Shown in pieces: positions 47,199 to 63,793 of a DNA stretch of 64,000 bases (positions are counted from its first letter, which is position 1; each line of letters opens with the position of its first letter). The notes beneath the pieces were generated by a model, which made no database searches, was not told the origin of the DNA, and saw nothing but the letters and a program-made list of their open reading frames with translations. The stretch comes from Opitutia bacterium. GTDB lineage: Bacteria > Verrucomicrobiota > Verrucomicrobiia > Opitutales > Opitutaceae. A program made the translations under genes and the position numbers. The DNA lies in contig CANJVR010000003.1 of assembly GCA_947478395.1 (NCBI GenBank), positions 451,421 to 515,420 of the forward strand. The letters run 5' to 3'.

Positions 47199-47400
47199 CT
47201 CGAGCCTTTCAGTGTATCGAACACGATCTTGGCGAACATGGTATCGACGGGCTAGCTTAGCGGTCTTGCTGCACCACGCGCCCCTTCCGCTTCTCGCCCG
47301 CGATCTCATCCCCGGTCGCACGCTGGGTACGTTGAATAACTCCATCGGCGTGAACGGGCACGATGGGTTATAAAAATGGTGGAGGTGGCGGGAGTTGAAC
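47199..47400 (-). mobile_element. att-like junction copy A: conserved left arm plus tmRNA 3'-end core
   Basis: Core 47377-47400 TGGTGGAGGTGGCGGGAGTTGAAC is the reverse complement of GTTCAACTCCCGCCACCTCCACCA (tmRNA T-arm/acceptor end). The left arm aligns with 63399-63560. Confidence 0.8.
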
Positions 47401-47574
47401 CGGGCTTACCGGGGTCTTTTAATGACACTATTGCCCTCAACGTTTTACCGAGTAAACTTGGGGTGTTCTCGCGCAGGTTCGATCTAGGTAAACGGATATC
47501 TGGCGTTAGACCGTGTCGGCTGAGATCTTCTCCAACATCCTTGCGTTGGGACGCGTATTTGGCCACCGTGACCC

Positions 47575-47793
47575 ATGCTTAACTGGTCAGAATGTTCCGC
47601 CGTCGATCGGGCGCCCGGAAAGGTCAGCGGCGCCTGGCTTTTCAAGGGCACGCGTGTTCCGGTAAAGGCACTTTTCGAGAATCTTGAAAGCGGAGCAACT
47701 GTAGAGGATTTTTTGGAATGGTTTCCTGGAGTGAGTCGGGAGCAAATCGAGGCCGTGTTGGACCACGCGCAGCGCAGCCTCGTTGAGGCTTAA
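47575..47793 (+). CDS. DUF433 family antitoxin
   Basis: PGKVSGAWLFKGTRVPV..LFENLESGATVEDFLEWFPGVSREQI. Confidence 0.9.
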   Translation: MLNWSECSAVDRAPGKVSGAWLFKGTRVPVKALFENLESGATVEDFLEWFPGVSREQIEAVLDHAQRSLVEA

Positions 47794-47797
47794 AGGA

Positions 47798-48142
47798 GTG
47801 AAGATACTTTTCGATCAAGGCACACCTGTGCCGCTGCGCCGCTTTCTGGCTTCACACGAGGTGGTGACAGCTTTTGACCGCGGCTGGGGCGAACTACAAA
47901 ATGGTGACTTATTGCGCGCAGCAGAGGCGGATGGCTTTGCCGCCATCATTACGACGGATCAAAATCTTCGCTATCAGCAGCACCTGCCCAGCCGCCGACT
48001 AGCGATACTTGTCTTGCTTACCACGGATTGGCGGCGCATCCGGCAAGACGCTGATTCCGTCGTTCAAGCAGTGGCGTCTTTGTCCTCAGGGGATTACGTT
48101 GAGTTACCCATCCGATCTTTGCCTAAGCCCGAACCGAGGTAG
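47798..48142 (+). CDS. PIN-like toxin (DUF5615/VapC45-type), partner of DUF433
   Basis: KILFDQGTP, NGDLLRAAE, IITTDQNLRYQQ; adjacent to DUF433. Confidence 0.85.
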   Translation: MKILFDQGTPVPLRRFLASHEVVTAFDRGWGELQNGDLLRAAEADGFAAIITTDQNLRYQQHLPSRRLAILVLLTTDWRRIRQDADSVVQAVASLSSGDYVELPIRSLPKPEPR

Positions 48143-48223
48143 GAGGCTCTCTTGATGCATTGCGGCACTCATCAAGATCTATGAAGTGCCGCAACTTTCC
48201 TCGTCACCCATCCGCTGCCAGCA

Positions 48224-48415
48224 CGCGATCTCTCCCCCTGTCACTCGCCGGGTACGTTGAGTAATCCCATCGGCGCGAACGCGCGCGATGGGGCCTGAAA
48301 ATGGTGGAGGTCGTGGGATTTCAAACCGGATTATATAGTGATCGAAATCTCCGGGATTGAGGTAACTGAATCACGCTCAGCTACGCGGCGCTTTTGGCGT
48401 TTTGCCAGTGCGGGC
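48224..48415 (-). mobile_element. att-like junction copy B: partial left arm, tmRNA-end core and right arm
   Basis: CGCGATCTCTCCCCCTGTC...GGTACGTTGAGTAATCCCATCGGCGCGAACGCGCGCGATGGGGCCTGAAAATGGTGGAGGT is nearly identical to 63487-63574. The right arm GTAACTGAATCACGCTCAGC...GGCGTTTTGCCAGTG matches copies C and D. Confidence 0.82.
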
Positions 48416-48432
48416 ACGCATCTTCCGCGGGA

Positions 48433-49917
48433 CTATTTGATTCCGCCGTTGGGATTTTTCTGGGGCTCAACTTCGGTCGAGACGCCGGCGGCGGCCATGA
48501 TTTCGCGGAGGGCGGCGGCGGTTTGCGGGGAGCCGCGGAGGTTCATGCCGCGGTAAACCCCGGTCGCGATGCGCAGCGGGGTCCAGCCGTTTTGGTTGGG
48601 CCGGTTCCACACTTCGATCTTCGCCCCTTTGGACACGAGATAGGGTACGGAAGAAGTGGCCCACTTCAGGGCGGCGCCGTGCAGCGCGGTATTGCCGTTC
48701 TGGTCGACCGCGTTGACGTCGTTGCCGAGTTCCACGGCGAGTTTCACGGCCTCGAACACTTCCTCCTCCGTGCCGGGATCCTCGCCGGGGGATTGCACGT
48801 CGACGCCGGCCGCCGCCAAGAGCGGCGTGGTGCCGTCGGCGTTCGGGATCGATGGGTCGGCGCCGAGTTCCACGAGGAGCCGCATCAACTCGGCGTCGGC
48901 GGTGCGCGCGGCGAGCAGGAAGGGCGTGGCGCCTTTAAGATTGAGGGTCGTGCGCGGGCCGCCGCTGGCGGTCCGCCGGCGGTTCACGTCGGCGCCGTGC
49001 GCCACGAGGAACCGCACGAATTCGAGGTCGGACATTTTCCCGCTGCCCTCGGGGGCGGGGTCGTTGGAGCCTGCCCCCGGACGGCGGACCCAGGTGAGCA
49101 GGTGCAGCACGGTCCGGCCCGACCAAGTGTAGTTGGGATCTGCGCCGGCCCCGATTAGCCACGCGCCGAGTTCGTAGTGTGCGTTGGTCACGGCCAGCGA
49201 CAACGCGCTGGGGCCGCCGGGCTTGAGGCCGACGGAATCGTTGGCGCTCGCGCCGGCTTCGAGGAGCACCCGGGCGACATCGTGATGCCCCTGCCGCACC
49301 GCGAATAGAAAGGCGCTGAAGCCGCCCTTGGACTTGGCGCCGACTTCTGCGCCAGCGCGCAGCAACTCGGCCACGGCGTCGCGGTTGCCCTCGGCGGCGG
49401 CCCACATGAGCGCCGTCTGGTCTTGGGCCGGCTCGCGTGCGTTCGGCTCGGCGCCGCGGGCGAGGAGCAGTTTCACGGCGTCGGGTCGGCCGGTCTGCGC
49501 CGCGACCATCAGGGGAGTGCGGCCATCCGGGAGGGAGGCATTCACGCTGGCGCCGGCGTCCAGCAGGAGGGCGATGAGAGGGGCATGGCCCAACTCGCAG
49601 GCGGCGAAGAGCGGGGAGACGCCGTAGCGGTTGGTGGCCACCTTCGCGCCGGCCTGCACGAGGCGCTGCGCGGCCGCGAGGTCGCCGGACTCGGCGGCGA
49701 AATGCAGCGCCGTCTCGCCGGTGGGCGTGGCCGCGTTGGGGTTGGCGCCCGCGCCCAGAAGCGCGGTCAGTCGGGTCGCGTCGCCCGCGCGGGCGGCGGC
49801 GAGGAAGGCGGCATCGTCCGCGGCGACGGGCAGCGAGCCGGCGAGGAGGAGACACAGGCCGGCGGCGGCAAATTTCATACGCGCGTAAAATCTCATCATT
49901 CCGGCAGTCCGGCTCAC
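48433..49917 (-). CDS. Secreted ankyrin-repeat protein (DUF1552 operon partner)
   Basis: Repeated G.T(A/P)L..AA..G....V..LL..GA motifs; start overlaps the DUF1552 stop. Later ATG starts are possible. Confidence 0.9.
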   Translation of the reverse strand: MSRTAGMMRFYARMKFAAAGLCLLLAGSLPVAADDAAFLAAARAGDATRLTALLGAGANPNAATPTGETALHFAAESGDLAAAQRLVQAGAKVATNRYGVSPLFAACELGHAPLIALLLDAGASVNASLPDGRTPLMVAAQTGRPDAVKLLLARGAEPNAREPAQDQTALMWAAAEGNRDAVAELLRAGAEVGAKSKGGFSAFLFAVRQGHHDVARVLLEAGASANDSVGLKPGGPSALSLAVTNAHYELGAWLIGAGADPNYTWSGRTVLHLLTWVRRPGAGSNDPAPEGSGKMSDLEFVRFLVAHGADVNRRRTASGGPRTTLNLKGATPFLLAARTADAELMRLLVELGADPSIPNADGTTPLLAAAGVDVQSPGEDPGTEEEVFEAVKLAVELGNDVNAVDQNGNTALHGAALKWATSSVPYLVSKGAKIEVWNRPNQNGWTPLRIATGVYRGMNLRGSPQTAAALREIMAAAGVSTEVEPQKNPNGGIK

Positions 49918-51260
49918 AGCACCACCGGGGAGGAAATTTCCGAGAGCCGGCCGGTGCTGTCGGCGAACGCCTCGAGCGACACACCGACCTTGTCGAGCAT
50001 CGTCAGGTGCAGGTTGGCCAGCGGCGTCGGTTCGGCGTAGCGAATATGCCGCCCGCCGCGGTGCGTGCCGCCGCCCCCGCCAGCGACCACGATGGGCAGG
50101 TCGACGTGGTTGTGGATGTCCGGGTTTCCCATGCCGCTGCCGAAGAGGAGTAGCGAGTGGTCGAGGAGGTTGCCGGTGCCGTCCGGGGTCGCCTGCAGTT
50201 TCGCGAGGTAGTAGGCGAAGAGTGACACGTGAAACGCGTTGATCTTCTCGAGATTCGCGATCTTCGCGAGATTGCCGGCGTGATGGGAGGCGGCGTGGTG
50301 GCCCTCCGCGACGCCGATTTCGGGATAGGTACGGTTGCTCGTTTCGCGGGCGAGCTGGAAGGTCATGACCCGGGTGAGATCGCCCTGCATGGCGAGCACC
50401 TGCAGGTCGAACATGAGCCGGGCGTGGTCGGCGTAGGCGTCGGGCACCGTGCTCGGCCGGTCGATATCGGGCGCGGGTGCATCGGCGGCGCGATTCTCCG
50501 CCTGCTGGATCCGGCGCTCAACCTCGCGGATGGTGTCGAGGTATTCGGCGACCTTGTGGCGGTCGCCGGGGCCGACGCTGCGCTGGAGACGCGCGACATC
50601 GTCGAGCACCCAGTCGAGGATGCTGGCGTCCTTGCGCAACTCGGCCTGGCGCTCGGCGGCGCTGCCGCCGGTGCCGAAGAGGCGCTCAAAAACCACGCGC
50701 GGGTGCGCCTCGGCGGGAAGCGGGGCGGTGGGGGTCGCCCACGAAAGATTGTTCTGATAGACGCAGGCGTAGCCGTTGTCGCAGTTGCCGACGGCCGTGG
50801 TGAGGTCCATCGCCAGCTCGAGCGAGGGCAGCGGCGTCTCGCGGCCGATGCGGCGCGCCGCGATCTGGTCGACGGTGGTGGCGAGCTCGTAGTCGCTGCC
50901 CTCGGTCATCTTCGCGCGAGCGGCGCTGAGGAAAGCCGCGTTGGCGGTGGCGTGATTGCCGGCGGAATAGGCGTTCCTCAACTCGAGGTTGGACAGCACG
51001 CTGACCTGGTTGAGGTAGGGTGTCAGCGTCTGCAGCGTCGGGGGAAGCGTGGACAGCGGGCCGGTGGTCTCCGGGATCCACTTGCCGAGCTGGGCGCCCA
51101 TCGGAAGGTAGACGTAGCCGAGGCGCCGGACGGGTGCGGCCGCGGTCTTCGCCAGCGGCGTCATGGCGGGGAGCATCGATTCGAGCAGTGGGAGGGCGAG
51201 GGTGATGCCGGCGCCGCGCAGGAACGTGCGGCGACTCAGGGCCTTTTTCGTGATGATCAT
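49914..51260 (-). CDS. DUF1552 (HXXSHH) family Tat-exported protein
   Basis: LSRRTFLRGAG..LALPLLESM twin-arginine leader; TVDQIAA, CDNGYACVY, HHAASHH. Confidence 0.88.
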   Translation of the reverse strand: MIITKKALSRRTFLRGAGITLALPLLESMLPAMTPLAKTAAAPVRRLGYVYLPMGAQLGKWIPETTGPLSTLPPTLQTLTPYLNQVSVLSNLELRNAYSAGNHATANAAFLSAARAKMTEGSDYELATTVDQIAARRIGRETPLPSLELAMDLTTAVGNCDNGYACVYQNNLSWATPTAPLPAEAHPRVVFERLFGTGGSAAERQAELRKDASILDWVLDDVARLQRSVGPGDRHKVAEYLDTIREVERRIQQAENRAADAPAPDIDRPSTVPDAYADHARLMFDLQVLAMQGDLTRVMTFQLARETSNRTYPEIGVAEGHHAASHHAGNLAKIANLEKINAFHVSLFAYYLAKLQATPDGTGNLLDHSLLLFGSGMGNPDIHNHVDLPIVVAGGGGGTHRGGRHIRYAEPTPLANLHLTMLDKVGVSLEAFADSTGRLSEISSPVVL

Positions 51261-53653
51261 TTGGCTTCCTTCATTTGAAACGGGGCGCTGCGGACGAGGC
51301 CGAGCACGATGGCGGAAAGGCGGTAGTCCTCCGGGGCGGCGTCATGGACGATCTGCCGGACGGCGGGCTCATCGTAGTACTCCAAGCCGCGCCCGAGGGA
51401 ATAGACCAGCAGCTTTTCGGCGAGGGTGTGGACGAAGAGTTCCGGGCGTTTCAGGATCGCCTGCTGGAGTTCTGCCGGTGAGTGAAAGGCGGTGCCGTCC
51501 GGCAGGCTTCCGGTGGTGTCGAGGGGCTGGCCGCCCTCGGACGTGCGCCAGCGGCCCACGGCGTCGTAATTCTCGAGGGCGAAGCCGATCGGATCCATCA
51601 GGTTGTGGCAGGTGGCGCAGGCGGGCTGGCTGCGGTGGCGGGCCATCTGCTCGCGCATCGAGAGATTCTTGCCGGCCTCGTTCTTCTCCTTCAATTGCGG
51701 GACATCGGGCGGCGGCGGCTTCGGCGGCGTACCGAGGAGATTGGTCAGAATCCAGTTGCCGCGCACCACGGGGGAGGTCCGGTTCGCGTGCGAGGTGACG
51801 GTTAGGATGCTTCCGTGGTTGAGCAGTCCGCCGGCGCGGTCCTCGGGTCCCAGTTCGACGCGGCGGAACTCGCTGCCGTAGACGTGTGCGATGCCGTAGT
51901 GCTTCGCGAGGCGCTCGTTCAGAAACGTGAAGCGGGCGCGCAGCAGGTCGAGGACGCTGCGGTCCTCGCGCAGGATGCTGGTGCAGAACAGCTCGGTTTC
52001 GCGCCGCATGGCTGAGCGGAGGTTCTCGTCGAAATCCATGAACAGCCGAGCATCGGGCCGCGCGAGGTCGACGTTGCGGAGATAGAGCCATTGCGAGGCG
52101 AAGCTCTCCACGAGCGCCGAGGAACGGGGATCCTGCAGCATGCGCCGGGTTTGCGCGGCCAGCACCTCGGGGCGGCTCAGGGTTCCCTGGCTGGCGACAT
52201 CGAGCAACTCGTCGTCGGGGATGCTACTCCAGAGAAAGAACGACAGCCGCGAGGCGAGCTGCAGATCGGGCACGCGGAAGACCTTGCCTGCCGCGGTACC
52301 CGGCGGATCGGGCTCGATGCGGAAGAGGAAATTCGGGCTGACGAGAATGGCGCGCAGGGCCATCTCGATACCGGCCTCGAAGCCCTCCTTTGCCTTGGTC
52401 TCGGTGTAGAAGCGCAGCGGCCCGGCGAGGTCCTGCGCGGTGACTGGACGCCGGAACGCGCGCCGGGCGAGCGTGGCAATGACCTTTTGCGCGGTGGCGT
52501 CCTCCTGGGCGGGGCCGGTGGGAAAGGACGGGAAAATCCGGCGGCGGCTCGGCGTGTCGCCGGGGCCGGTGGCGTTGTACGGGCCGACGACGGAGATGGA
52601 GTAGATCGCCGGCTGCAGGCGCGGATGGCGGTCCATGTTGAAATGGGCGAGCGTCGGCTCGCGCTCGGATTCGCCGAGGACGGTCGAAGTGCGGGGGAAG
52701 GTGGCGCTTACCTCGTGGGGGCCGGCCTTGACCGGCACGCGGATGGAAAGGTGGAGGTCGACATTCTGGTAGGTCGCGCCGCGGCCGGGCGCGGCGACCT
52801 GGAAGCGCGTGACCGGGGCGCCGTCGACCAGCAGGTCGATGTCGCTGGTGCCGCGGAGGAGGCCCTCGACCTTGTCGTTGCGATCGCGGGCGAGGCGAAG
52901 TTGCACCTCGTATTCGCCGTCGCGCGGGAAATTGAAACGGGTGGAAGCGCCGCCCCGTGTTCCCGGCGGCAGGTCGGCGAACTCTCCCTCCTGCGTCAGG
53001 TCAATCGGAACCTGCATCGTCTCGCCCTGCGGCGCCGACAGCGGCCGGCCCAGCGCGATCTGGCCGATTTTTTTGGCGGCACCGAGGTAACGCTCGAGGA
53101 GGCTCGGCGAGAGTTCGCCAACGGTGATGTTGTCGAAGCCGTGGCTGCTGTCGTCCTTGGGCAGCAGGGCGGAGGCGTCGATCTCGAGGTCGAGCAGGTC
53201 GCGGATCGCGTTGTGATACTCGGTGCGCGTCAGCCGCCGGAATGTGTCGACGTGGCCTGGGTTCGGCTGGGCGGCGGCCGCGCGATCGATCGAGGACTGA
53301 AGATGGGTGACGACGGCCTCGTAGGACGCCTCATCCGGGCGCGTCTCGCCGATGGGCGGCATCTGGCGGTGGCGGAGTTTCAGGAGCACACGCTCCCATG
53401 CCTCGGGATTGGCGGCGGGATTGCGGGCGTTGAGGCCCTCGAGCGACAGGCCCCCCTTCTTGGTGGCGGCGTCATGGCAGTCCATGCAGTAGTCCTGAAT
53501 GACCGTTGCGGTTCGGTTCGGGAGGTCGGCGGCGGCGGCGCGGGCCAGGCTGAAAGCCCCGAGCAATCCAGCGGCGCCACCGAGCGAGCGGAGGAGGCGC
53601 GAGGCGGAAGATCGATGGATCAGCCGGGAGGGAGTGAACACAGGAGAGGGCAA
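51257..53653 (-). CDS. DUF1592/1588/1587/1595/1585 (PSD) protein with cytochrome c motifs
   Basis: CMDCH and CATCH heme motifs; RRLTRTEY, LASRLSFFLWSSIPD, TSPVVRG, DPIGFALENYDAVGRWR. Confidence 0.9.
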   Translation of the reverse strand: MPSPVFTPSRLIHRSSASRLLRSLGGAAGLLGAFSLARAAAADLPNRTATVIQDYCMDCHDAATKKGGLSLEGLNARNPAANPEAWERVLLKLRHRQMPPIGETRPDEASYEAVVTHLQSSIDRAAAAQPNPGHVDTFRRLTRTEYHNAIRDLLDLEIDASALLPKDDSSHGFDNITVGELSPSLLERYLGAAKKIGQIALGRPLSAPQGETMQVPIDLTQEGEFADLPPGTRGGASTRFNFPRDGEYEVQLRLARDRNDKVEGLLRGTSDIDLLVDGAPVTRFQVAAPGRGATYQNVDLHLSIRVPVKAGPHEVSATFPRTSTVLGESEREPTLAHFNMDRHPRLQPAIYSISVVGPYNATGPGDTPSRRRIFPSFPTGPAQEDATAQKVIATLARRAFRRPVTAQDLAGPLRFYTETKAKEGFEAGIEMALRAILVSPNFLFRIEPDPPGTAAGKVFRVPDLQLASRLSFFLWSSIPDDELLDVASQGTLSRPEVLAAQTRRMLQDPRSSALVESFASQWLYLRNVDLARPDARLFMDFDENLRSAMRRETELFCTSILREDRSVLDLLRARFTFLNERLAKHYGIAHVYGSEFRRVELGPEDRAGGLLNHGSILTVTSHANRTSPVVRGNWILTNLLGTPPKPPPPDVPQLKEKNEAGKNLSMREQMARHRSQPACATCHNLMDPIGFALENYDAVGRWRTSEGGQPLDTTGSLPDGTAFHSPAELQQAILKRPELFVHTLAEKLLVYSLGRGLEYYDEPAVRQIVHDAAPEDYRLSAIVLGLVRSAPFQMKEAK

Positions 53654-53796
53654 GGGAGCGCGGGGGAAAGGCGGCCTCGGGGAGAAGGCGTAAAAACGAG
53701 GATGAGGTTGCCGCCGAAGCGGGAGGCAATGCGAGGGAAAATGTCGGCAGTGCGGAATATCTCACGCGCAGCTGCGAAGGATGCAAAGGATGCAGG

Positions 53797-53982
53797 TTTG
53801 GGGTTCGAACCCGGATTATGAAGTTATGGAAATCGAGGTGAGTTGAGTAACGGCATCACGTTCAGCGCTCAAAGCGTTGGGCGTTTTGCCAGTGTGGGCG
53901 GGAATGTAACGGGAAATTTTTTAGGCGATACTCGCCGAGCAAATCCCGCGAACACGGGGATGTTCTGCGGAGTGGGGCAGTG
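53797..53982 (-). mobile_element. att-like junction copy C: eroded core plus long right arm
   Basis: GGGTTCGAACCCGGATTATG...GAGTAACGGCATCACGTTCAGCG...GGCGTTTTGCCAGTG...GATACTC...AAATCCC..GAACACGGGGAT.TTC...GGGGCAGTG aligns with 63578-63793. Confidence 0.75.
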
Positions 53983-54159
53983 AGGTACTGGGAAAACGTG
54001 GGGGCCGGATGGCCGGAGTCTGAACCGAAGGTGACGCGTTGCCTCCGCCCTGAGGTGCTCCCGCGTCTTCGCGCGCAACGAAAACAAGGCGCGTCATTCA
54101 CCCACCGCGCGCCTCAAGAAGGATCGCCTGCGTGCTGAAACTTCTGAACGCTTCGCCCG

Positions 54160-55386
54160 ATGAATCTCCTGCCCCCACGGCTTTCGGTCCTCCTTTCCCT
54201 GCTCGCCTTCGTTTCGCCGTGCTTGTGGGCCGCGGAGCCGGTGGGCAAAGCCGCCGCTGCCGCCGACCCGGATTGGGCGGCGTTTCAACAGGCGATGCAG
54301 CCCCCGCCTTCCTCCAAGGACGCGGATTTTTCGGGGCGCATTCGCTGGGGCATGATGTTCGTCCAAGGCGTTCTCGCGACCGGCCAGAATTTTTACGACC
54401 GGCACCCCACTGACCCCCGCCGGTGGGACTGCGTGATGCAGATGGTGAAACAATTCGGCAGCTGGACCGGCGGCATCAACGGCCGCGAGGACGGCAAAGA
54501 AGCCGCCAACGCCGTGTTCAACGAGGCGGCGCGGGCGCAGTGGGCGATCAAGCTGGAAGCGCTGCGTGTCGCGGGAGTATCAGCGCCGGACATTTCCGAA
54601 ACCAACCGGCTCATTCTCGAACAGGAAACCTTGGTCGGTTTACGCAGCGTCGCGGCCAAGGCCGCCCCGACCGAGCGCGTCGCCGCGCTGGCCGCGGTCA
54701 AGGCCGAGGTGGACCGCCTCGCGGCCAAATATCCCGATGAGCCGCTCATGGGCTCCCTCGCCAGCGGCTACATCAAGTCGATGGAACGCGCCGGCGCCAC
54801 CCGCGAAGAAATCCAGGCGCAGTGGGCCGCGTTCGCCGCCTATCCGGGAACGGCGCTGGCCGACGCGGCGCCCGCGGGCGCCCGGGACGCGGCGGCGCGA
54901 CAGCAGCTCGGTGACCGGGCAAAGTTGCCCATCGAGCTCGCATTCACCGCGGTCGACGGCCGCAAGGTCGACCTCCGGGACCTGCGAGGAAAGGTCGTCC
55001 TCGTGGAGTTCTGGGCCACCTGGTGCGCCCCTTGCAAAGAGGAGATTCCTAACATCAAAAAAATCTACGCCGCCTACCACGGGAAGGGCTTCGAGGTCGT
55101 GGGCATCACGCTCGAGAACGCCGGGCTCGCCGACGCCGACACCCCGGCTGAGCGGGAGAAAAAGCTGGCGAAGGCGCGTCAGACGCTCGGCGACTTCACC
55201 GCAAAACAAGCGATGCCGTGGCCGCAGTATTTTGACGGCAAGTATCGGCAGAACACGATCGCAGTCGACTATCTCATCAACGCCATCCCGGCCATGTTTC
55301 TGATCGGCAAAGATGGCCGCATCATCACGACCTACGCGCGCGGTCCCCAGCTGGAGGCGGCCGTCACCGCCGCGTTGGGACTGTGA
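54160..55386 (+). CDS. Secreted TlpA-family thiol-disulfide oxidoreductase
   Basis: Signal peptide; GKVVLVEFWATWCAPCKEE, MPWPQYFDG, IPAMFLIGKDG. Confidence 0.88.
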   Translation: MNLLPPRLSVLLSLLAFVSPCLWAAEPVGKAAAAADPDWAAFQQAMQPPPSSKDADFSGRIRWGMMFVQGVLATGQNFYDRHPTDPRRWDCVMQMVKQFGSWTGGINGREDGKEAANAVFNEAARAQWAIKLEALRVAGVSAPDISETNRLILEQETLVGLRSVAAKAAPTERVAALAAVKAEVDRLAAKYPDEPLMGSLASGYIKSMERAGATREEIQAQWAAFAAYPGTALADAAPAGARDAAARQQLGDRAKLPIELAFTAVDGRKVDLRDLRGKVVLVEFWATWCAPCKEEIPNIKKIYAAYHGKGFEVVGITLENAGLADADTPAEREKKLAKARQTLGDFTAKQAMPWPQYFDGKYRQNTIAVDYLINAIPAMFLIGKDGRIITTYARGPQLEAAVTAALGL

Positions 55387-55752: not shown

Positions 55753-56793
55753 ATGAAACATCCCATTGGCGGTCCGCGTATTTGGCGTCGTCTGGTGACC
55801 CGCTGGTGGCAACCCGCCGCTCGCATGCAACGGGAATGGGAGGCCCGCGCCCGCCTCGACGCCAAAGGCTACATCGGCCGCGGCTACGCCGCCTCCGACG
55901 CCTTGTTTTGGGCCTCCGGCGAAAACGATCTCACTCAGGTGGTCCTGCGCGACATCGAACTCGACCCGGCCGCCGCCGTGCTGGAAATCGGCTGTGGCGT
56001 CGGCCGTTTGCTGCGGCCGTTCGCGACCCGGGCGCGCGTGGTCTGGGGTGTCGACATCGCGCCGACGATGATTGAGCAGGGCCGGTTCCATCTCGCGGGC
56101 GCGCCCAACGTGAATCTGCACGTCACGACCGGCCGACTCGAAATGATCGCGAGCGGCTCGCTCGATTTTGCCTACTCGTTCATCGTCTTCCAGCACATCC
56201 CGTCCAAAGCCGCTATTTCGACTTACCTCGCCGAGGCGGCGAGGACCCTCAAGCGCGGCGGCATCTTCAAGTTTCAGGTCGACGGCCGCCGCCGCGCGTT
56301 TTGGCGCGGCACCGACAGCTGGTTGGGCGTCTGGTATACGGCCGGGGAAATCCGAGCGGCCCTGGCGAACAAAGGCTTCGCGGTGCTTGATACGTGGGGC
56401 GAAGGCACGCAATATTTCTGGATCACCGCGGTCCGGCTCGGTGCCGCCTCGGAGCCCGCGGCCCTCGTAAATTCCCGCATCCGGGAACTCAATCCCGCCG
56501 CCGTCGCCGCGGTCTTGCGGCGTCTGGGACACACCGCCCCTGCCGCCGCCGTCGCCGGGATTCTCGACGGTCGCTGCACGATTCGCCACCAAGCCCGCGG
56601 CTTCCTGCGCGCCACGCAAGCCGTGCCGCCGGAGGGTTTCGTGCGCCGCGCCTTCCTTGCCGTGCTCGATCGCGAACCCGACCCGGATGGACTTTCCTTC
56701 TACGTCGCCCAGCTCGCCGGCGGCGCCTCCCGCGACTACCTGCTGGATTGCCTGCTGGCCTCGTTCGAATTTCGCGCCGCCATCAGCAACTGA
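55753..56793 (+). CDS. Class I SAM-dependent methyltransferase with C-terminal DUF4214-like domain
   Basis: VLEIGCGVGR, GVDIAPTM, SFIVFQHIP, RTLKRGG; C-terminal FVRRAFLAVLDREPDPDGLSFY...LLASFEF. Confidence 0.82.
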   Translation: MKHPIGGPRIWRRLVTRWWQPAARMQREWEARARLDAKGYIGRGYAASDALFWASGENDLTQVVLRDIELDPAAAVLEIGCGVGRLLRPFATRARVVWGVDIAPTMIEQGRFHLAGAPNVNLHVTTGRLEMIASGSLDFAYSFIVFQHIPSKAAISTYLAEAARTLKRGGIFKFQVDGRRRAFWRGTDSWLGVWYTAGEIRAALANKGFAVLDTWGEGTQYFWITAVRLGAASEPAALVNSRIRELNPAAVAAVLRRLGHTAPAAAVAGILDGRCTIRHQARGFLRATQAVPPEGFVRRAFLAVLDREPDPDGLSFYVAQLAGGASRDYLLDCLLASFEFRAAISN

Positions 56794-56891
56794 CCGACGC
56801 CGGCCCCGCCCCGGTACTTGACCGCGTGTTTCCGGCCCTAGCCGCCGCGCGCCGGTGTATTTTCACCCCCGCCTCCTCTCCGCCGCGTCCG

Positions 56892-56945
56892 CGCGACTCG
56901 CCCGCGAGCTCATCGCCGGGCGCCCGCCGGTCGTGCTGGGGCGAG
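56892..56945 (-). mobile_element. att-like junction copy F: left-arm remnant only
   Basis: GCGACTCGCCCGCGAGCTCATCGCCGGGCGCCCGCCGGTCGTGCTGGGGC resembles copy E (55393-55445); core lost. Confidence 0.5.
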
Positions 56946-57134
56946 AGATAGCCGAGCGAGTTGGGCGGGCGCGTGGCGATAAAACGCCGCAGTAGCCACG
57001 ATTATCCGGGCGAATAGATTGCTAATGAAAACGGCGTCACGCATCCGCGCCCGAGCACTCGCCCGTTACACGAATGACCGGCGCCATCTTGGTGTCCGGC
57101 TTCTAACGTTAATCCTAATCCTAAAATCGTTCCC

Positions 57135-57602
57135 ATGAAGCTTCGCGCACTCTTCACCATCATTGCTCTGAGCACCGGCCTGGCCTCGCTGGCGCCCGCC
57201 AAGACCATCGTCGAAATCGCCGCCGGTTCACCTGATCACACCACGCTCGTGGCTGCCATCAAGGCTGCGGGCCTCGTTGAAACCTTGAGCGGAGCCGGCC
57301 CTTTCACGGTTTTCGCGCCGACCAACGCCGCTTTCGCCAAGCTGCCCGCCGGCACGGTGGAATCGCTTTTGCTGCCTGAAAACAAAGCCAAGCTCGTCGC
57401 GGTTCTCACCTACCACGTCGTTCCGGCCAAGGTCATGGCCGCCGAGGTCAAGTCGGGCCAGGTGCCCACGGTCAACGGCAAGGCCCTGACGGTAAAAGCG
57501 GACGCCACGGGCGTGACGGTCAACAACGCCAAGGTCGTCGCCACCGATCTGGTCGGCAGTAACGGAGTGATCCACGCCGTCGACACCGTGATCCTCCCGT
57601 AA
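57135..57602 (+). CDS. Secreted fasciclin (FAS1) domain protein
   Basis: TLVAAIKAAGLVETL.G.GPFTVFAPTNAAFAKLP, LTYHVV, NGVIHAVDTVILP. Confidence 0.95.
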   Translation: MKLRALFTIIALSTGLASLAPAKTIVEIAAGSPDHTTLVAAIKAAGLVETLSGAGPFTVFAPTNAAFAKLPAGTVESLLLPENKAKLVAVLTYHVVPAKVMAAEVKSGQVPTVNGKALTVKADATGVTVNNAKVVATDLVGSNGVIHAVDTVILP

Positions 57603-57745
57603 CTGGCGGGTGCGCGGTTCCATTTAGCAATTTCCAACTCTTCGCCCGGGGCAGTGGGGTGGTTCGACGGCCTAGCCGTAGGATTACGTTGCTGCCCCGG
57701 TTTTATTTTTTAGAAGAACTCGTTGCCGCTCCACTTTCATTCCCC

Positions 57746-58291
57746 ATGAAACGTCTTCTGCTCCTGATCGCCTTAGTTTCCCCCACCATGGCCACTGAAC
57801 AAGCGTTTCCACCTTCACCGACTGGTGTTGCGGAGTTGAAGACACTACCCGCCGGCTTGCTCCTCAAAGCATCTGCGACGGGAAACTACTTCGAACAGTC
57901 GAACCGGCTCTTCGGCCCGCTGTTCAGCTATATTTCCTCGCACGAGATTGCCATGACGACACCGGTGGAGGCGAAGATCGAGGGCGCGGCGATGTTTTTT
58001 TGGGTGGCAAAGAGCCAGCAGGCGAAGGTAGCCGGGAGCACGGGCGCGGTCGAAGTGATCGAGATACCGGAGCGATGGGTGGCCAGTCTGGGCGCCCGCG
58101 GCAGTTATTCGGCGCAAAATTTCTCGAAAACGCGCGAGCAACTTCTGGCCTGGCTGAGTCAGCGGAAGGACGTCGAAGCGGCGGGCTCGCCCTACGCGGT
58201 TTTCTGGAACGGGCCGTTCACGCCCGGATTTCTGAAGCGTTATGAGGTGCACGTCCCCGTGCGGTCGGTGGGCCAAGCCCAGACTCGATAG
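57746..58291 (+). CDS. SOUL heme-binding family protein
   Basis: F..LFSYI, IAMTTPV, MFF, WNGPFTPGFLKRYEV; signal peptide. Confidence 0.8.
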   Translation: MKRLLLLIALVSPTMATEQAFPPSPTGVAELKTLPAGLLLKASATGNYFEQSNRLFGPLFSYISSHEIAMTTPVEAKIEGAAMFFWVAKSQQAKVAGSTGAVEVIEIPERWVASLGARGSYSAQNFSKTREQLLAWLSQRKDVEAAGSPYAVFWNGPFTPGFLKRYEVHVPVRSVGQAQTR

Positions 58292-58324
58292 GCGTCCGCC
58301 ATGTTCAATCGCGCGGAACACGTC

Positions 58325-58359
58325 CGCGACCCGCGCGCGCCCAGCGGGTCGCGCCCTAC
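58325..58359 (-). repeat. GTAG-type REP-like element between convergent genes
   Basis: Minus strand GTAGGGCGCGACCCGCTGGGCGCGCGCGGGTCGCG, with a CGCGACCCGC/GCGGGTCGCG stem. Confidence 0.55.
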
Positions 58360-58375
58360 CTTGTGGTGAGATGCC

Positions 58376-59731
58376 TTATTCTTCGGGCTTGAGGGTGTGG
58401 AGGGCGGGGAGGCGGCGCAGGGCGGGGACCTGTTTGGCGACCAGCGCGGCGACGGCGATCGTCCCGAGCCCACCCCAGATTACGGCGGCGACCGGTCCCA
58501 CGACGGCCGCCATGAGGCCGGCGCGGAGGGCGCCGAGTTCGTTGGAGGAGCCGATGAAGATCTGGTTGACCGCGGTCACGCGGCCGCGGAGGGAGTCGGG
58601 CGTGAGGAGTTGCACCAAGGACTGGCGCACGACGACGCTGATATTGTCGAACACGCCGGTGAAGAATAACGCGATGAGCGAGAGCCAGAACCAGGTGGAG
58701 AAACCAAAGACCACAATCGACGCGCCGAAGCCCGCGACCGTCCACAAGAGCGCACGTCCGGGATGCTGGAGGGGCGCACGGTGGGCGAGCCACATGGCCA
58801 TACCAAAGGCCCCGATCGACGGCGCCGCACGCAACCAGCCAAGACCGATGGGGCCGACGTGGAGGATGTCGGCCGCGTAGATCGGCAACAACGCCGTTGC
58901 ACCCCCGAGCAACACGGCAAACAGATCGAGCGTGCTCGCGCCTAGGATCACGGGTCGGCGCCAGATGAAGTCCGCGCCCCCGAGCATGTCACGCCACGTG
59001 CGGTGACCTTGGGTCGGTTTGGGCGGCGTCAAATAGTGCACGCGGCGGAGGAGCCCATAAAAGGTGAGCTCGAGGGCCACGGCGATGCCGTACACGAAGT
59101 GAAAACCCCCGAAGGCGATGAGGAACCCGCCGATGGCCGGCCCGACCATGGTGGCGATCTCAAACGTGCTGGAGCTCCACGTGACGGCGTTGCTCAAGTG
59201 CGCGCTCGGCAACAACAGCGGCGGAAAACTACTACGCGCCGGCCAGATCAAGATGCGTACCGTCGCGATGGCGAGGAGCAGGAGGAAAACCAGCGGGAGC
59301 GCGGGATCGGTAAAGTGGAGCGAAGCCGGATCGACGTGGCGCTCGAAGAGCAGGGCGGTGGAGCGGAGCACGCCGTTGGCCCAGCGCAACGGGGCGAGGT
59401 CCGGAACGCTGCTATGATAATAGGACAACAAGGCGAGGGCGGTACCGAGGAGTGCCGAGACGCCAGAGCCGAGGGCGATGATGCGGCGGCGGTCGTAGCG
59501 ATCGGCTAGCGCTCCGGCGGGCAAGGACAGCGCGAGCAAGGGCAACATGTTGACCAAGCCGACGAGACCTAGGGCGGTCGCGGAGTGGGTCCATTGGTAG
59601 ATTTCCCACGTGACGGCGACGCCGACGGCTTGACGACCGAGCAAAGAGAGGAAACTGCCGATGAGATAAGCTCGGTAGTTGGGAACGCGCAGGGCGGCGT
59701 AAGGGTCGTGCGGCGCGGAGGAGACGGTCAT
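58376..59731 (-). CDS. MFS transporter (EntS/DHA3-like)
   Basis: GALADRYDRRR motif A, GPAIGG, LDLFAVLLGG..ALLP, TPDSLRGRV, IGSSNELG. Confidence 0.9.
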   Translation of the reverse strand: MTVSSAPHDPYAALRVPNYRAYLIGSFLSLLGRQAVGVAVTWEIYQWTHSATALGLVGLVNMLPLLALSLPAGALADRYDRRRIIALGSGVSALLGTALALLSYYHSSVPDLAPLRWANGVLRSTALLFERHVDPASLHFTDPALPLVFLLLLAIATVRILIWPARSSFPPLLLPSAHLSNAVTWSSSTFEIATMVGPAIGGFLIAFGGFHFVYGIAVALELTFYGLLRRVHYLTPPKPTQGHRTWRDMLGGADFIWRRPVILGASTLDLFAVLLGGATALLPIYAADILHVGPIGLGWLRAAPSIGAFGMAMWLAHRAPLQHPGRALLWTVAGFGASIVVFGFSTWFWLSLIALFFTGVFDNISVVVRQSLVQLLTPDSLRGRVTAVNQIFIGSSNELGALRAGLMAAVVGPVAAVIWGGLGTIAVAALVAKQVPALRRLPALHTLKPEE

Positions 59732-60108
59732 GGTTTGGCCGGACGTTTAGCAGTCGGCGTGCTAAAAACCGCGGGCAGGGGGTTGGTTAAAAAAGACCCC
59801 GTCCGAGTGGGACGGGGTGGGAGGAGGTGTAGGGACGGCAGCTTGGAGAACATCACGAGCGGTCCGGTGGGCAAACCTCTAGGCGGGGCGAAACCCGGTA
59901 TCCGTGTTGCCATCGTGCGGGCCAACCAAATTGAGCATCGCGATTATGAACTCAGCGAATCGCCCGGGCCAGCCGGCAGGCTGCGACGACCGAAGAAATT
60001 GTGGCTGGATGAAATGTAGAATCGTTCAACGGTGATGAGCATCAGAGGGCGCCAGCAAGGCGCAGCCTAAGGTCTGTGACAAGGCGGAGAAACCCGGCGG
60101 GCGGCCCC

Positions 60109-60138
60109 AAAAAAGGCGGCCGGAAAATCCGGCCGCCT
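60109..60138 (-). terminator. Intrinsic terminator of the TonB receptor gene
   Basis: AGGCGGCCGGA-aaa-TCCGGCCGCCT stem with an A-run on the plus strand (U-tract on minus). Confidence 0.82.
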
Positions 60139-60177
60139 AGAGAGGGTGATTTAAGCGAGGCGTTTGAACGCCGTTAC

Positions 60178-63138
60178 TTAGTAATCGTAGGAAACGCTGA
60201 TACGAACGTAGCGCGACGTCTGGAAGGACGTGGGCAGGTTGTACGTGGGGCTCGGGACATTCAGGCCGGTCTCGGCGACGTTATTATACTCGGTGGCGGT
60301 GTGCTGATTCAAGGCGTTGAACACATCCAGGCCGAAGCCGAGTTTGTCGGCGGCCCAGCGGGGACGATACTTCAAGGTCAAATCGATCTGGTTATTCCAA
60401 GGCGTACGGCCCGCAGAACCACGCGGGGTGGGTTTGCTGTTGGAGAAGAACGAAGCCGCGCCGTATTGGGAAGCGAACAGATCGGTGGGGTGGAAACCGA
60501 GTTCGTTCTTGGGCGTGCCGGACTCGAGGCGGAAGTTGCCGCCGAGCTGGAATTCCTTGGTCAGGTTGTACGCGCCGAAGACCTTGAACTTGTGGCGACG
60601 GTCGTTGGCGAGGTAGCCGGTGCTATGGTCCATCAAGCCGGGATGGTCAAAGAGGACCGTGAGGCCGGCATCGGTCTGGCCGTTGTCGGAGAGCACGGAG
60701 CCTTCGTCGTTACCCCAGCTGTAGGACTGGGTGTAGGAGCCTTGGAGCATCCATTTACCGTTGTAGGCTTTTTCGAAGAAAACTTCGGCGCCGACGTATT
60801 GACGCTTGGCCTTGGGGAATTTGAGCTCCGCCGGAGTGAAACTGACCGCGCGGAGGCCTTTGCCATCACCGAAGTCCACGAAGGTGGTCATAGGCTGGCC
60901 AGGGTTGGTGAGGACGTAATAATCGTTACCACCGCCGGCGAAGCCCTTGATGTTGTTCTTGGCAGCGTAGGCGTTAAGCGTCTCGTCGATAGCTTCGTCT
61001 TCGATGAAGCGTCCCACGTTGCGATAGGTACCGCGAACGCCGACCGTCCAATCTTTGTTCAGCTGTTTTTGATAGCCGAGAATATACTCATCTTGATACA
61101 TCGGCTTGAGGTTGCGATCGACAATCTCGAGGGGATTGTGGATTTCACCACTGGCGAATACGTTGCGGCCGCCAATTTGGGCGCCGATGTTAGGGGTAGA
61201 GTCGGCTTTAAGGCCGGTAAGGGCATAGTATTCTTCGTAGTAAGTTTCGCCACCGGCGAGACGGATGTTGGTGTTGGTGGCGATGGGCAGGTAATAACGG
61301 CCGTAATTGGCGAAGATTTTAGATTTACCGTTCTTTTCCACATCGAAGGAGGCGCCGAGACGGGGAGCGAGCTGGTTATTAATCTTCACGAAGGTCGCGC
61401 CTTGGGAGTTGCGATTATCAAAGCCTTCATTGCGGAGTCCGAGACTCAGGAGCAATTGATCATCGAGCAGCTTCCAGTTGTCTTCAGCGTAGTAGGCGTT
61501 GGTCAGGGTTTGGAAGGCACCGCCGTTGGCGTAGATACGCTTGCGAGCGTATTCGGTCACGCCGGCCGGAACGATGCCACCGTTGGCGAGGGTTTTGCCT
61601 GGGGCCGTGACGACATAGCGCCAGTAAACGCCACCGGAGTAAGCTTGGAGGCTGTTGGAGGCGTTGTCTTCGCGGTCGAGACCGAAGCGGAGTTGGTGAG
61701 CACCGGCGAATTTGAAGCTATAGTCACCGTCGATACGCATGGCTTTGCGCGTGTCCTCGAGCGTGGTCGGCTGGGCGGTGGTCGCCTTGCTGATCAGAAT
61801 CGCGGTACCGGAGCGGGCATCAAGTACGTAAGGGATGCTGTCGCCGGCGCCGGCATCAGTGAAGTTGGCGGTGCTCTTGCCGTAAAGGGCCGAGAGATTG
61901 AAGGCTTCGGTGAGTTTGCCGGAGTAGCGGAAGATGTAGTCTTTACCACCGCGCTTGGCTTCGGAACTGCCATTGGAGGCGCCGATAGCGCCGGTGGCGT
62001 AAGTGTAGTCGAGGGTCTCGGTTTCGGTCTTACGTTTGTCGGAGATGGCCGTGAGTTCGAAGCTGTGGTTGTCGCTCACATTCCAGTCAAGCTTGGTGCC
62101 GTAGAACGGATCCTTGCTGCGCGCGCGGCTGAAGGTCGAAACGCCAGCGCCTTCAGATTTGTTGTCGCGGGCGTTGTAGAGGCCGTAGAAAAACAGCTTG
62201 TTTTTAATCAGCGCGCCACTCGCGTAAACGTTGGCGTTAAGCGAGCTGGAATCACTGCGGGTACGATTGATGTAAGGCGAGCCGTTGGGCTGGTTGACGC
62301 TGGGTGCGCGGGAAGCGAGTTGCTCGGGTTCGTAGTAAATATTCGCGCCGGCCTTAAAGGTGTTACCGCCACGTTTGGTGGTGGTGTTGATCACGCCACC
62401 GGTCGAGCGACCGAACTCCGCACCGTAGCCGCCGGTCTTAACTTGGAACTGGTCGTAAAATTCGAAGGGCACGCTACCGCCACCGAGACCGTTGCGGGCG
62501 TTGGTGAGGTTAAAGCCGTTCACGTAGTAAGCATTTTCACCGACGGAAGAACCCCCGAAAGAAGCGAGATTGCCGAAGGCGGCGACGCCTTGGGTCGTGC
62601 CGGGTGCGAGGAGCGCGACCGCCGTGGTGTTGCGAGCCACCGGGAGTTGCTTAATAACCTGCTGGTTGAATACCGTGACGGATTCAACCGAGGAAACGTC
62701 GATCGGGGAAACGGAGCCAGCGCTAACGCTGAATTTCTCGAGCGAGATCACGTCGGACTTGGCGCCGAAGCGAACCGAGGATCCGGTACCGAGGTTGACG
62801 CTAACGCTTTCAACCACTTGGTCAGGCTGACCCTTGGCCTTGAGGGTGACTTTGTAGTCACCGACTGGGAGGGAGGAAATACGGTAGTTGCCCGAGGCAT
62901 CGGCCACAGCGTCGCGTTTTTGACCCGTCGTGAGACTGACCGCGGAAACCGCGGAGCCAGCCGGAGCGCCTGCCCCGTAGATATAACCTTCAGTGTTACT
63001 TTGAGCGTAACCGACTGAAGTAACGAGGGTTAAAAGCGCCACCGTCAGTGCCGCCGTAGCGACAGAGGCAGTGAAACTCACGGATACAATCAGAGCGCTC
63101 AACGGCGCTCGTAGGCTATCGAATGGTTTATGATTCAT
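60178..63138 (-). CDS. TonB-dependent outer-membrane receptor, Oar-like, with N-terminal carboxypeptidase-regulatory-like domain
   Basis: DASGNYRISSLPVGDY, LPVARN...ALLAPG, ENAYYVNG, GGYGAEFGRSTGGVIN plug, LAPRLG, C-terminal RYVRISVSYDY barrel end. Confidence 0.93.
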   Translation of the reverse strand: MNHKPFDSLRAPLSALIVSVSFTASVATAALTVALLTLVTSVGYAQSNTEGYIYGAGAPAGSAVSAVSLTTGQKRDAVADASGNYRISSLPVGDYKVTLKAKGQPDQVVESVSVNLGTGSSVRFGAKSDVISLEKFSVSAGSVSPIDVSSVESVTVFNQQVIKQLPVARNTTAVALLAPGTTQGVAAFGNLASFGGSSVGENAYYVNGFNLTNARNGLGGGSVPFEFYDQFQVKTGGYGAEFGRSTGGVINTTTKRGGNTFKAGANIYYEPEQLASRAPSVNQPNGSPYINRTRSDSSSLNANVYASGALIKNKLFFYGLYNARDNKSEGAGVSTFSRARSKDPFYGTKLDWNVSDNHSFELTAISDKRKTETETLDYTYATGAIGASNGSSEAKRGGKDYIFRYSGKLTEAFNLSALYGKSTANFTDAGAGDSIPYVLDARSGTAILISKATTAQPTTLEDTRKAMRIDGDYSFKFAGAHQLRFGLDREDNASNSLQAYSGGVYWRYVVTAPGKTLANGGIVPAGVTEYARKRIYANGGAFQTLTNAYYAEDNWKLLDDQLLLSLGLRNEGFDNRNSQGATFVKINNQLAPRLGASFDVEKNGKSKIFANYGRYYLPIATNTNIRLAGGETYYEEYYALTGLKADSTPNIGAQIGGRNVFASGEIHNPLEIVDRNLKPMYQDEYILGYQKQLNKDWTVGVRGTYRNVGRFIEDEAIDETLNAYAAKNNIKGFAGGGNDYYVLTNPGQPMTTFVDFGDGKGLRAVSFTPAELKFPKAKRQYVGAEVFFEKAYNGKWMLQGSYTQSYSWGNDEGSVLSDNGQTDAGLTVLFDHPGLMDHSTGYLANDRRHKFKVFGAYNLTKEFQLGGNFRLESGTPKNELGFHPTDLFASQYGAASFFSNSKPTPRGSAGRTPWNNQIDLTLKYRPRWAADKLGFGLDVFNALNQHTATEYNNVAETGLNVPSPTYNLPTSFQTSRYVRISVSYDY

Positions 63139-63398
63139 TAGTTGCCAGGTTGGGGTTGTGAAAAACGCACTTTTGGGTCAAAGTCGCGCGTGTGACTTGC
63201 CTGGAATAATCGAGTTAAATTATTTATGCGCAACGCTATTTTACGATCGCTCCCGAAGGGACCTCGGCCCAATCCACGAGCGACCTAAAGGGCTTCGCCC
63301 CCGTATCGGTCTCATCCGCCAATTACTGGGAAGCTCCCTGGCCGGAAATTTCCCTAAGTTTACACGCCGAGAATTCGGTCAACCCAGCCCCGCGCGAG

Positions 63399-63793
63399 CT
63401 CAAGCCGTACGGTGCATCGAACACGATCTCGGCGGACATGGTATCGACGGGCTAGCGTAGCGGTCTTGCTGCATCAGCGACCCGCCCGCGATCTCTCCCC
63501 CTGTCGCCCGCCGGGTACGTTGAGTAACCCCATCGGCGCGAACGCGCACGATGGGGCCTGAAAATGGTGGAGGTGGTGGGAGTTGAAACCAGATTTTATG
63601 GTTATGTAAATATTTGGAAATTAAGTAACTGCATCACGCCCAGCGACTCGAAGCTTTTTGGCGTTTTGCAGGCTTTGGCAGGAGTTGGCGCCAAGAGGCA
63701 TGAATGTTGGCAGGAATCTGACAGGAATTTTTCAGGGGATACTCCCAAGGAAAATCCCAAGAACACGGGGATATTCCGAGGGTGGGGGCAGTG
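63399..63793 (-). mobile_element. att-like junction copy D: most complete (left arm, tmRNA-end core, right arm with arm-type repeats)
   Basis: Core 63565-63590 TGGTGGAGGTGGTGGGAGTTGAAACC; hairpin CCCCATCG-GCGCG-aa-CGCGC-a-CGATGGGG; right arm with TGGCAGGA x2 and TGACAGGA. Confidence 0.83.

Follow-up and report, generated by a model that had tools for sequence, protein, structure and literature searches.

A stack of gene cassettes behind the tmRNA gene of an Opitutaceae bacterium, and how it may have been built and reshuffled

How can unrelated genes be stacked behind a tmRNA gene, bounded by copies of its 3′ end, where no integrase is encoded? The question was raised by a 64,000-nucleotide stretch of Opitutia bacterium DNA (the window), which forms the end of contig C3. 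The original prediction described it as an integrase-free platform on which cassettes had repeatedly accreted at ssrA, marked by six co-oriented copies of one junction sequence (A to F).

Junctions, cargo and the ssrA anchor

Four of the copies had been said to keep a minus-strand core from the tmRNA end, and the host gene agrees: the final 25 nt of this genome's ssrA are matched at 24 positions in D and A, and at 21 in B and E. Outside the junctions, only two more places in 3.3 Mb match at least 20 of the 25. Genome-wide, a junction profile picked out the window, ssrA and, behind tRNA-Gly(ccc), one weak copy, and nothing else; the copies are not scattered as those of a MITE or REP element would be. 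The six copies are co-oriented, as predicted; full junctions are limited to four of them (A, B, D and E). A full junction consists of an island-type left arm, a core running from the ssrA T loop to CCA, and a constant 90-nt tail right of the core, X′, which is also found behind the intact ssrA. The features are listed below.

33905–35152, minus strand: nitric-oxide-synthase-like gene (88.6% over 1249 bp to G188)
39635–40879, plus strand: LytTR regulator (Pfam); homologues adjoin junctions in G012 and G017
41056–47004, plus strand: BspA-type LRR surface protein behind A (Pfam)
47199–47401, minus strand: junction A; core 24/25 at 47377–47401, foreign-type X′ (97% to G013), shared remnant
47402–48206, plus strand: B–A cargo, DUF433 and DUF5615-like toxin-antitoxin unit (Pfam and cluster likeness)
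48207–48415, minus strand: junction B; truncated P3 arm, core 21/25 at 48302–48326, resident-type X′
48433–53653, minus strand: C–B cargo, DUF1592, DUF1552 and ankyrin genes (Pfam)
53762–53982, minus strand: junction C; P3 arm 53812–53982, palindromic core 53801–53812, then an inverted 40-bp piece
54160–55386, plus strand: E–C cargo, TlpA-like redoxin (Pfam)
55389–55539, minus strand: junction E; 60-bp P2 arm remnant, core 21/25, X′ minus its first hairpin
55663–56793, plus strand: F–E cargo, methyltransferase with DUF4214 (Pfam)
56893–56938, minus strand: F, a 46-nt distal X′ fragment without core (nhmmer E 0.005)
57135–63138, no single strand: D–F cargo, fasciclin, SOUL, MFS transporter and TonB receptor, a mosaic of pieces (Pfam)
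63399–63471, minus strand: remnant 3′ of X′ in D, common to A and several junctions of relatives
63472–63564, minus strand: X′ of junction D, the same variant as behind the genome's own ssrA
63565–63589, minus strand: core of junction D, ssrA T loop to CCA, 24/25
63590–63793, minus strand: left arm of junction D, type P3, 97–99% identical to P3 arms of G013 and metagenomes
63708–63726: tandem arm-site repeat TCCTGTCA..TCCTGCCA in the D arm
63795–63887, plus strand: 93-bp IS3-end-like repeat truncating the D arm, a separate multicopy element

Left homology, put at about 170 bp in A, B, D, E and F, has that length only between A and D, the common extent being about 90 nt beyond the core; the right homology, put at about 200 bp in B, C and D, is trimmed in B to about 90 nt by the ankyrin gene. 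The core of junction C is the palindromic GGGTTCGAACCC, unlike the ssrA-end core, and its 40-bp piece bears a weak likeness (80%, E 0.009) to the end of the tRNA-Leu cassette in inverted orientation. F is 85% identical to E over 55 bp. The 93-bp repeat has five further full or partial copies in the genome and a very high summed depth in one run; its likeness to IS3 ends at contig starts was judged by eye.

The cargo names given earlier for the intervals between A and D agree with Pfam, and gene stops lie close to junctions at 48433 and 55386. The claim that every interval is one self-contained cassette does not hold for the D–F interval, whose pieces lie at separate loci in relatives; homologues of its TonB receptor and MFS transporter (84–90%) are at separate non-junction loci. 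Much array cargo is found elsewhere in relatives without junctions, and copies of the TlpA-like redoxin, 85–90% identical, occur in differing contexts across the genus. The B–A unit also retains a short stretch from the 3′ end of a surface gene; its 117-aa toxin-antitoxin partner has no Pfam match, and scores 0.96 to clusters in which 16–39% of members have DUF5615. The median unit measures 2.3 kb, and toxin-antitoxin genes are present in 15 of 26 units.

To the left, the island continues past 47199 at least as far as 39635. Over its last 200 aa, the BspA-type protein shares 86.5% identity with the surface protein that lies behind ssrA. The match to the nitric-oxide-synthase-like gene in G188, which belongs to another genus, stops just short of a P2-core-X′ junction; by this likeness the gene is likely a relic cassette that lost its junction by deletion, and the island probably reaches 33905. 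Left of 39635, a terminal attR was sought and not found.

Intact ssrA had been expected to the right of the window, on the minus strand. The gene exists as the anchor; it lies on a separate contig (C1:922603–922955, plus strand), 4.8 kb short of the contig end and oriented toward the break. The C1–C3 join fits GC skew and is itself unassembled; left-flank synteny gave no confirmation of it, and ARAGORN and Rfam found nothing within the window. The order of intact tmRNA gene and co-oriented downstream 3′ fragments, split here by the gap, is contiguous in the relative G013, where ssrA and five junctions share one contig. Upstream of ssrA in relatives lies a 362-aa gene that is GlpX; its candidacy as a transposase was rejected.

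Arms, tail and the search for an integrase

The left arms bear arm-site repeats of two ssrA integrase families known in other Opitutaceae. P1 is the commonest arm, present at 25 of the 62 junctions. It is matched by the attR arm of G124, a complete island (E 2e-6), and by the P′ arms of both G124 and G158; these matches superseded a weak one to the arm of G171 (E 3e-4; 6 and 58 of 400 shuffles). In the D arm, 18 of 19 positions agree with the attR arm of the integrase island in G005 (0/400 shuffles), and G005-type arm repeats are present in P′ of 8 of 11 ssrA integrase loci among those listed. Arms P2 and P4 found no match among known island arms, and an order-wide search for P2 matched this genome only (1 of 401).

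Arm repeats do not flank the core on both sides. The strict P1-matching motif is present in 16 of 62 left arms and the second motif in 6 of 62, and no X′ carries an arm-site repeat (0/62). Since X′ lacks these repeats and also follows intact ssrA, the junctions are attR-like. Their earlier description as attP-like (P-O-P′) fails, as the right side has no arm repeats of real islands and does not travel with the cargo. X′ can fold into two hairpins, with a folding z-score of −0.21, a covariation term of −0.12 and any double change in 2 of 12 pairs.

In five cargo groups with differing upstream neighbours, the flank is 93–100% identical and X′ differs at 4–23 of 104 columns, the background mean being 12.8 of 104; independent pairs in this comparison are few, about 3–4 per class. 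X′ is not kept together with its cargo, an indication of homologous exchange within the repeat. Junction B has a resident-type X′ ahead of cargo 99% identical to that of G002, and A, after that cargo, has a foreign-type X′, which is the opposite of T-loop insertion.

The predicted absence of an integrase from the window was confirmed, and six-frame searches with tblastn and a custom profile found none in 33 array intervals. The absence rests on these two methods because PF00589 alone misses the ssrA integrase clade: the G012 copy was invisible to that search and was recovered otherwise. There were no island-integrase matches in 505,630 bases of array loci, no integrase adjoining a full X′ in 25 metagenome loci or genome loci, and no autonomous element adjoining the array in the loci examined. 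The genome has no close relative of the arm-matching ssrA integrases (best 25–35% identity). Two island integrases of the genome, which also encodes two Xer-like proteins, match no integron model in NCBIfam, and no integron integrase was found in the arrays. PF00239 (serine recombinase) has no match in the genome, the control being positive in 12 of 14. In G014 a partial X′ adjoins a small, frameshifted recombinase, which was set aside; this recombinase is unmatched in the present genome and has no close relative among the contigs searched. A ComEC family gene is present. Neither X′ nor the D junction matched anything in IMG/VR or in collections of phages and plasmids; 13 viral loci that contain the core were rejected as phage tmRNA-like ends or unrelated, and none has an integrase match.

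Accretion, exchange and alternative readings

Repeated accretion at ssrA, as originally proposed, is supported; none of the three contrary outcomes named with the prediction was observed, and the content and order of cargo differ between genomes. Whole units recur beside different neighbours. The B–A toxin-antitoxin unit, 925–929 bp from junction to junction, has a different pair of neighbours in each of four contexts (97% identity between the two copies aligned), and in G013 a 4.56-kb unit is duplicated at 99.9%.

We favour, with somewhat better than even confidence, a cassette stack behind ssrA derived from tyrosine-integrase islands that lost their integrase halves, the units being reshuffled by homologous recombination within a repeat of about 115 bp. 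Islands from at least two integrase subfamilies would enter at the T loop and leave attR-like ends, P-O-X′. Deletions would then strip P′ and the integrase gene, fusing the cargo to the upstream X′, and the deletion joint may often keep a scrap of the previous surface gene. The working unit would thus be cargo-arm-core-X′, and units bracketed by direct core-X′ repeats could loop out or in, or be copied, by host recombination. A passing integrase may at times act on a junction, seeding X′ behind ssrA of other genera and at off-target sites.

Several observations count against this explanation. At D the switch from foreign arm to resident sequence falls no more than 12 nt from the start of the core, which points to occasional integrase action. 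At the DUF2071|corA site, comparison of filled and empty alleles showed a duplication of about 7 bp ending at the T-loop left edge, with X′ at the left end of the insertion and the P2 arm at its right end; such an overlap with the target is too small for RecA. Together, the insertion and junction D indicate past occasional integrase action. No empty alleles were resolved at the CrcB and NfeD off-target sites. The P1 arm and X′ show no significant association in Mantel tests (p 0.25, 0.054 and 0.60). Seven different first cassettes stand behind ssrA ends 98–100% identical, and their X′ differences are near background, as T-loop insertion predicts. Gene conversion following such insertion would also unlink X′ from cargo, and the C1–C3 gap could conceal an integrase.

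Some of this evidence would suit the mobilisation in trans originally proposed, with units that are non-autonomous elements with a true attP (arm-core-X′), routinely moved at the T loop by an integrase encoded elsewhere, a reading that we consider rather doubtful. It would account for the DUF2071|corA alleles, which hold 0, 1 or 2 cargo units depending on the genome, for the resemblance of D to a T-loop crossover, and for X′ directly after CCA in G014 and in 4 genomes from two other genera, the ssrA of G014 being 350–352/353 identical to that of terminator-type genomes. P2-O-X′ could be a real attP, no integrase being assigned to arm P2. Against it, neither identified family has its arm repeats in X′, X′ and cargo are not linked, no integrase adjoins a full X′ in the loci searched, and the genome's own island integrases are distant from the ssrA ones. 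Excision joints were sought in read-derived contigs; none for array units, and no junction-to-junction joint, was among the 15 of 60 joints listed, and joints near 47004 were rejected as excision since they derive from other surface-gene/X′ loci.

Contigs from four studies carry the array in the same form (30 of 30 bins covered; contigs span B, C, E and F), which also counts against the favoured reading, and it looks static within this species. This, the damage to three of six window junctions (C, E and F) and the junction-less cargo of relatives would fit a fossil array, in which islands accreted and decayed and genomes differ by deletion and large-block transfer. Such a history is improbable, given the unit with four neighbour pairs and the seven first cassettes. 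A dispersed MITE or terminator-like element with a mere resemblance to the tmRNA end is a very improbable reading of the repeat. The hairpins of X′ and its partial copies at a few further loci of relatives would suit such an element; against it stand the folding and covariation values, the integrase arm repeats in the left arms, and copies that in this genome are confined to ssrA, the contig end and the tRNA-Gly site, all co-oriented in the window.

Within the favoured cassette stack, we tentatively entertain integron-like cassettes without a recombinase of their own: the 115-bp ssrA-anchored repeat and host recombination would add, copy and reorder toxin-antitoxin and surface-protein cassettes, the role of passing integrases being only to seed further sites and genera with the repeat.

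Relation to known arrays and meaning

The closest known system is the integrase-less ssrA islands of Dehalococcoides (McMurdie et al. 2011, PMC3146451). As described there, islands stand in tandem after ssrA, with copies of the gene's 3′ end as boundaries and the T loop as insertion point; 16 retain a serine-recombinase module, and the 15 without any integration module are explained by cis-mobilisable elements and by accretion. The present array shares the tandem arrangement, the ssrA 3′ boundaries and the T-loop insertion, likewise without an integration module. Unlike the islands in that account, it has no recombinase match in 33 intervals, DsiB module included, its arms come from tyrosine-integrase islands, its repeat includes the 90-nt tail past CCA, and its units are small and rich in toxin-antitoxin genes.

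Islander (PMC4383910), in the part of its description used here, requires an integrase in each island. The array resembles its islands in having an intact gene with displaced co-oriented 3′ fragments, and its arm-site repeats match the Opitutaceae ssrA islands G005, G124 and G158; it differs in that its members lack an integrase (0/33) and carry X′ in place of the P′ arm. Additive flexible genomic islands and tycheposon-built islands have repeats of the last ~20 nt or of partial tRNAs (PMC10872708, PMC4119200, bioRxiv 10.1101/2020.12.28.424599). They likewise belong to aquatic bacteria and are marked by tRNA 3′ repeats that recur, by transient integrase elements and by decay away from the anchor gene; neither a long conserved tail nor a test of where crossovers fall is described in the portions of these three sources drawn on.

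Chromosomal integrons also have small shuffled units, many toxin-antitoxin pairs and a unit-closing repeat. Unlike in integrons, no integron integrase was identified, the repeat forms no attC-like covarying hairpin (covariation term −0.12; z −0.21), and the cargo is multi-gene and in both orientations. In ICESt1/CIME, deletion and tandem accretion occur at one att site. The array is like ICESt1/CIME and SXT/R391 in its accretion at one att site; unlike them, no conjugative element was seen here. RecA-dependent recombination is described in tandem arrays of SXT/R391 (PMC5812530).

Integrase-less arrays at tRNA and tmRNA genes are already known, and how they keep changing is usually assumed. Here, dead arms are traceable to particular integrase subfamilies, and variants of a long repeat allow crossovers to be mapped, so that the choice between an integrase acting in trans and host recombination can be put to a direct test. 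Such arrays, which may offer small-genome lake bacteria a route for collecting toxin-antitoxin and surface genes without keeping an integrase, would escape island finders that rely on one being present.

Junction copies and their ssrA anchor

The 3.31-Mb assembly (G000) comprises 9 contigs, and the window forms the final 64 kb of contig C3. The single tmRNA gene, predicted to lie to the right of the window on the minus strand, was found on contig C1 at 922603-922955(+), 4.8 kb from the contig end. It points at that end, and a C1(+)-to-C3(−) join is consistent with GC skew, but no overlap between C1 and C3 exists. A tail identical in kind to those of the window copies follows ssrA, and then a surface-protein gene, which is cut by the contig end and lacks at least its 5′ part in the assembly.

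A full junction consists of a left arm (types P1 to P4), the ssrA core from T loop to CCA, and a tail of ~90 nt, X′. Of the six co-oriented copies reported in the window (right to left D, F, E, C, B and A), four have the tmRNA-end core, A and D matching the last 25 nt of ssrA at 24 positions, and B and E at 21. The core of C is palindromic, and F is a tail fragment only. Apart from ssrA and the window copies, a genome-wide profile search returned only a single weak copy, behind tRNA-Gly(ccc), so the repeat is not dispersed and a scattered element of the MITE type was dismissed.

The X′-like sequence behind tRNA-Gly(ccc) (C2:389031-389106; locus L006:5032-5107) resembles junction E. A one-cassette form of the same pattern occurs at tRNA-Leu(caa) (C1:153321-154544; locus L002:5322-6545), where the tRNA 3′ end and the same 80 bases downstream of it are repeated after a GDSL lipase gene, with no integrase. 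Window positions 63795-63887 hold a 93-bp IS3-end-like repeat with five further copies, four of them no more than ~5 kb from tRNA-Leu, -Asn, -Val or -Met.

Junction arms and integrase families

The 62 de-duplicated full junctions, not all independent because some metagenome contigs repeat MAG loci, comprised ssrA itself (13), P1 (25), P2 (4), P3 (9), P4 (4) and other flanks (7). The P3 arm of junction D carries a tandem TCCTGTCA..TCCTGCCA repeat, present in both arms of the G005 integrase island and in the right arm (P′) of 8 of 11 listed ssrA loci of that integrase family. The tandem CACCCGCTA repeat of the P1 arm recurs in the complete 48-kb G124 island, in both its arms, and in the P′ of G158. 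Neither motif was found on the X′ side of any of the 62 junctions. The original prediction had the junctions as attP-like P-O-P′ sites; island arm repeats on the left and an X′ with neither motif argue instead that they are attR-like. Each thus pairs a P arm of island origin with a right side that is not its cognate, and the P′ and integrase halves that would match the arm are gone.

Recombinases of G000 comprised two Xer-like proteins, an integrase in a tRNA-Ser island, whose identity to the ssrA integrases is 25-35%, and one more integrase; no resolvase-family match was found in the genome. The tRNA-Ser(cga) island (C1:527500-537430; locus L075) contains an integrase ORF, a DNA methylase, RhuM and an attR, after which comes a second integrase start.

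Cargo, extent and distribution

A census of all loci gave 35 junction-to-junction intervals, of which 33 remained after removal of two zero-length artefacts, window junctions C and F being merged into larger intervals. They represent 26 distinct kinds of 0.57-8.1 kb, and toxin-antitoxin genes were present in 15 of these by our own reading of Pfam matches. No integrase match was found in any of the 33. The B-A unit, a DUF433 and DUF5615-like toxin-antitoxin pair, was found whole with four different neighbour pairs.

The array had been given a left limit at 47199. The island extends further left, because an LRR gene and a LytTR regulator follow A, and a NOS-like gene resembles a junction-ending gene. 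Features in this region are:

33905-35152, NOS oxygenase-like gene, 88.6% identical to a gene of another genus that ends at a P2 junction; that homologue has IS3-like ends on its flanks
41320-43425, 69-bp LRR repeats within the LRR surface-protein gene
44134-45117, 228-bp tandem units within the same surface-protein gene

Assemblies of four studies, of which one may be the source, covered all 30 bins of 45200-64000, and contigs in two runs span junctions B, C, E and F. No junction-to-junction skip was seen among the joints listed (15 of 60). This shows a stable array in its dominant form only, because contigs drop rare variants.

Full X′ occurs in 9 of the 18 genomes of the genus, G000 included, and six have at least two junctions on a single contig; in G013 an intact ssrA and five junctions share a contig. 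Behind ssrA the remaining genomes have a plain terminator, other sequence or a classic integrase island. Among 383 family genomes outside the genus, with two candidates scored per genome, full X′ lay directly 3′ of ssrA in four and a partial junction in one. A metagenome scan gave 25 loci with the repeat. Named records that share the repeat bear the titles Opitutaceae, Opitutus or Opitutae MAGs, and runs containing the stretch are mostly lake or freshwater metagenomes.

Several variant loci were also observed. The ssrA end and native terminator are followed by a distal X′ piece and then by a frameshifted small tyrosine recombinase in G014 (contig C44; L045:13635-14433), a genome in which a different contig holds a full-X′ allele, or by a surface-gene remnant in G004 (L076:14000-14359). 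At L102:142-629 the ssrA end and X′ lead into a truncated DUF1365 gene beside tRNA-Arg(tcg). Viral contigs L168-L179 carry tmRNA genes with predicted tags that are unusually long or basic.

Position of exchange and related systems

Had cassettes been inserted into the T loop as P-O-P′ circles, mobilised in trans by an integrase as originally proposed, X′ would have remained with the cargo behind it. The best support for this model is an insertion at the off-target DUF2071|corA site, where a ~7-bp duplication stops at the T loop's left edge; it needs an integrase-type or microhomology event. The site is empty in G017, holds a ~330-bp element without cargo in G006 and on one G003 contig, the B-A toxin-antitoxin pair on another G003 contig, and a surface gene plus that pair in G013. 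At loci L092, L093, L100, L103 and L112, downstream of crcB rather than at ssrA, a palindromic repeat contains a HicA-type cassette with a core-X′ junction.

In five cargo groups with differing upstream neighbours, flank identity was 93-100%, yet 4-23 of the 104 X′ columns differed, the background mean being 12.8. X′ is thus unlinked from downstream cargo, contrary to T-loop entry as circles. Within the window, the toxin-antitoxin cargo has the resident variant of X′ ahead of it, at B, and a foreign one behind it, at A. In a four-gamete test on X′, 268 of 496 column pairs failed, a figure that recurrent mutation can inflate. The comparison gives a sign that exchange falls inside the repeat. 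Against this, no Mantel test reached significance, independent pairs numbered ~3-4 per class, and gene conversion produces the same unlinking of X′ and cargo; in junction D, moreover, the change from foreign arm to resident sequence falls ≤12 nt from the core start, a T-loop signature.

The array is real, ssrA-anchored and integrase-free. It works like an additive island and, as had been suggested, partly like an integron, yet it is no integron, and no set of complete integrase islands. The closest described case is the Dehalococcoides ssrA arrays, with 15 islands without an integration module (PMC3146451). Additive islands in which tRNA tails recur have been described from freshwater Methylopumilus, Alteromonas and Prochlorococcus (PMC10872708, PMC4119200, bioRxiv 10.1101/2020.12.28.424599), and RecA-dependent hybrids from tandem ICE arrays are covered in a review (PMC5812530). 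No description of the system in Opitutaceae was found in the open-access literature. What is new is the long constant tail, the attR-like junctions that can be traced back to two families of integrase, and the indication of exchange within the repeat.
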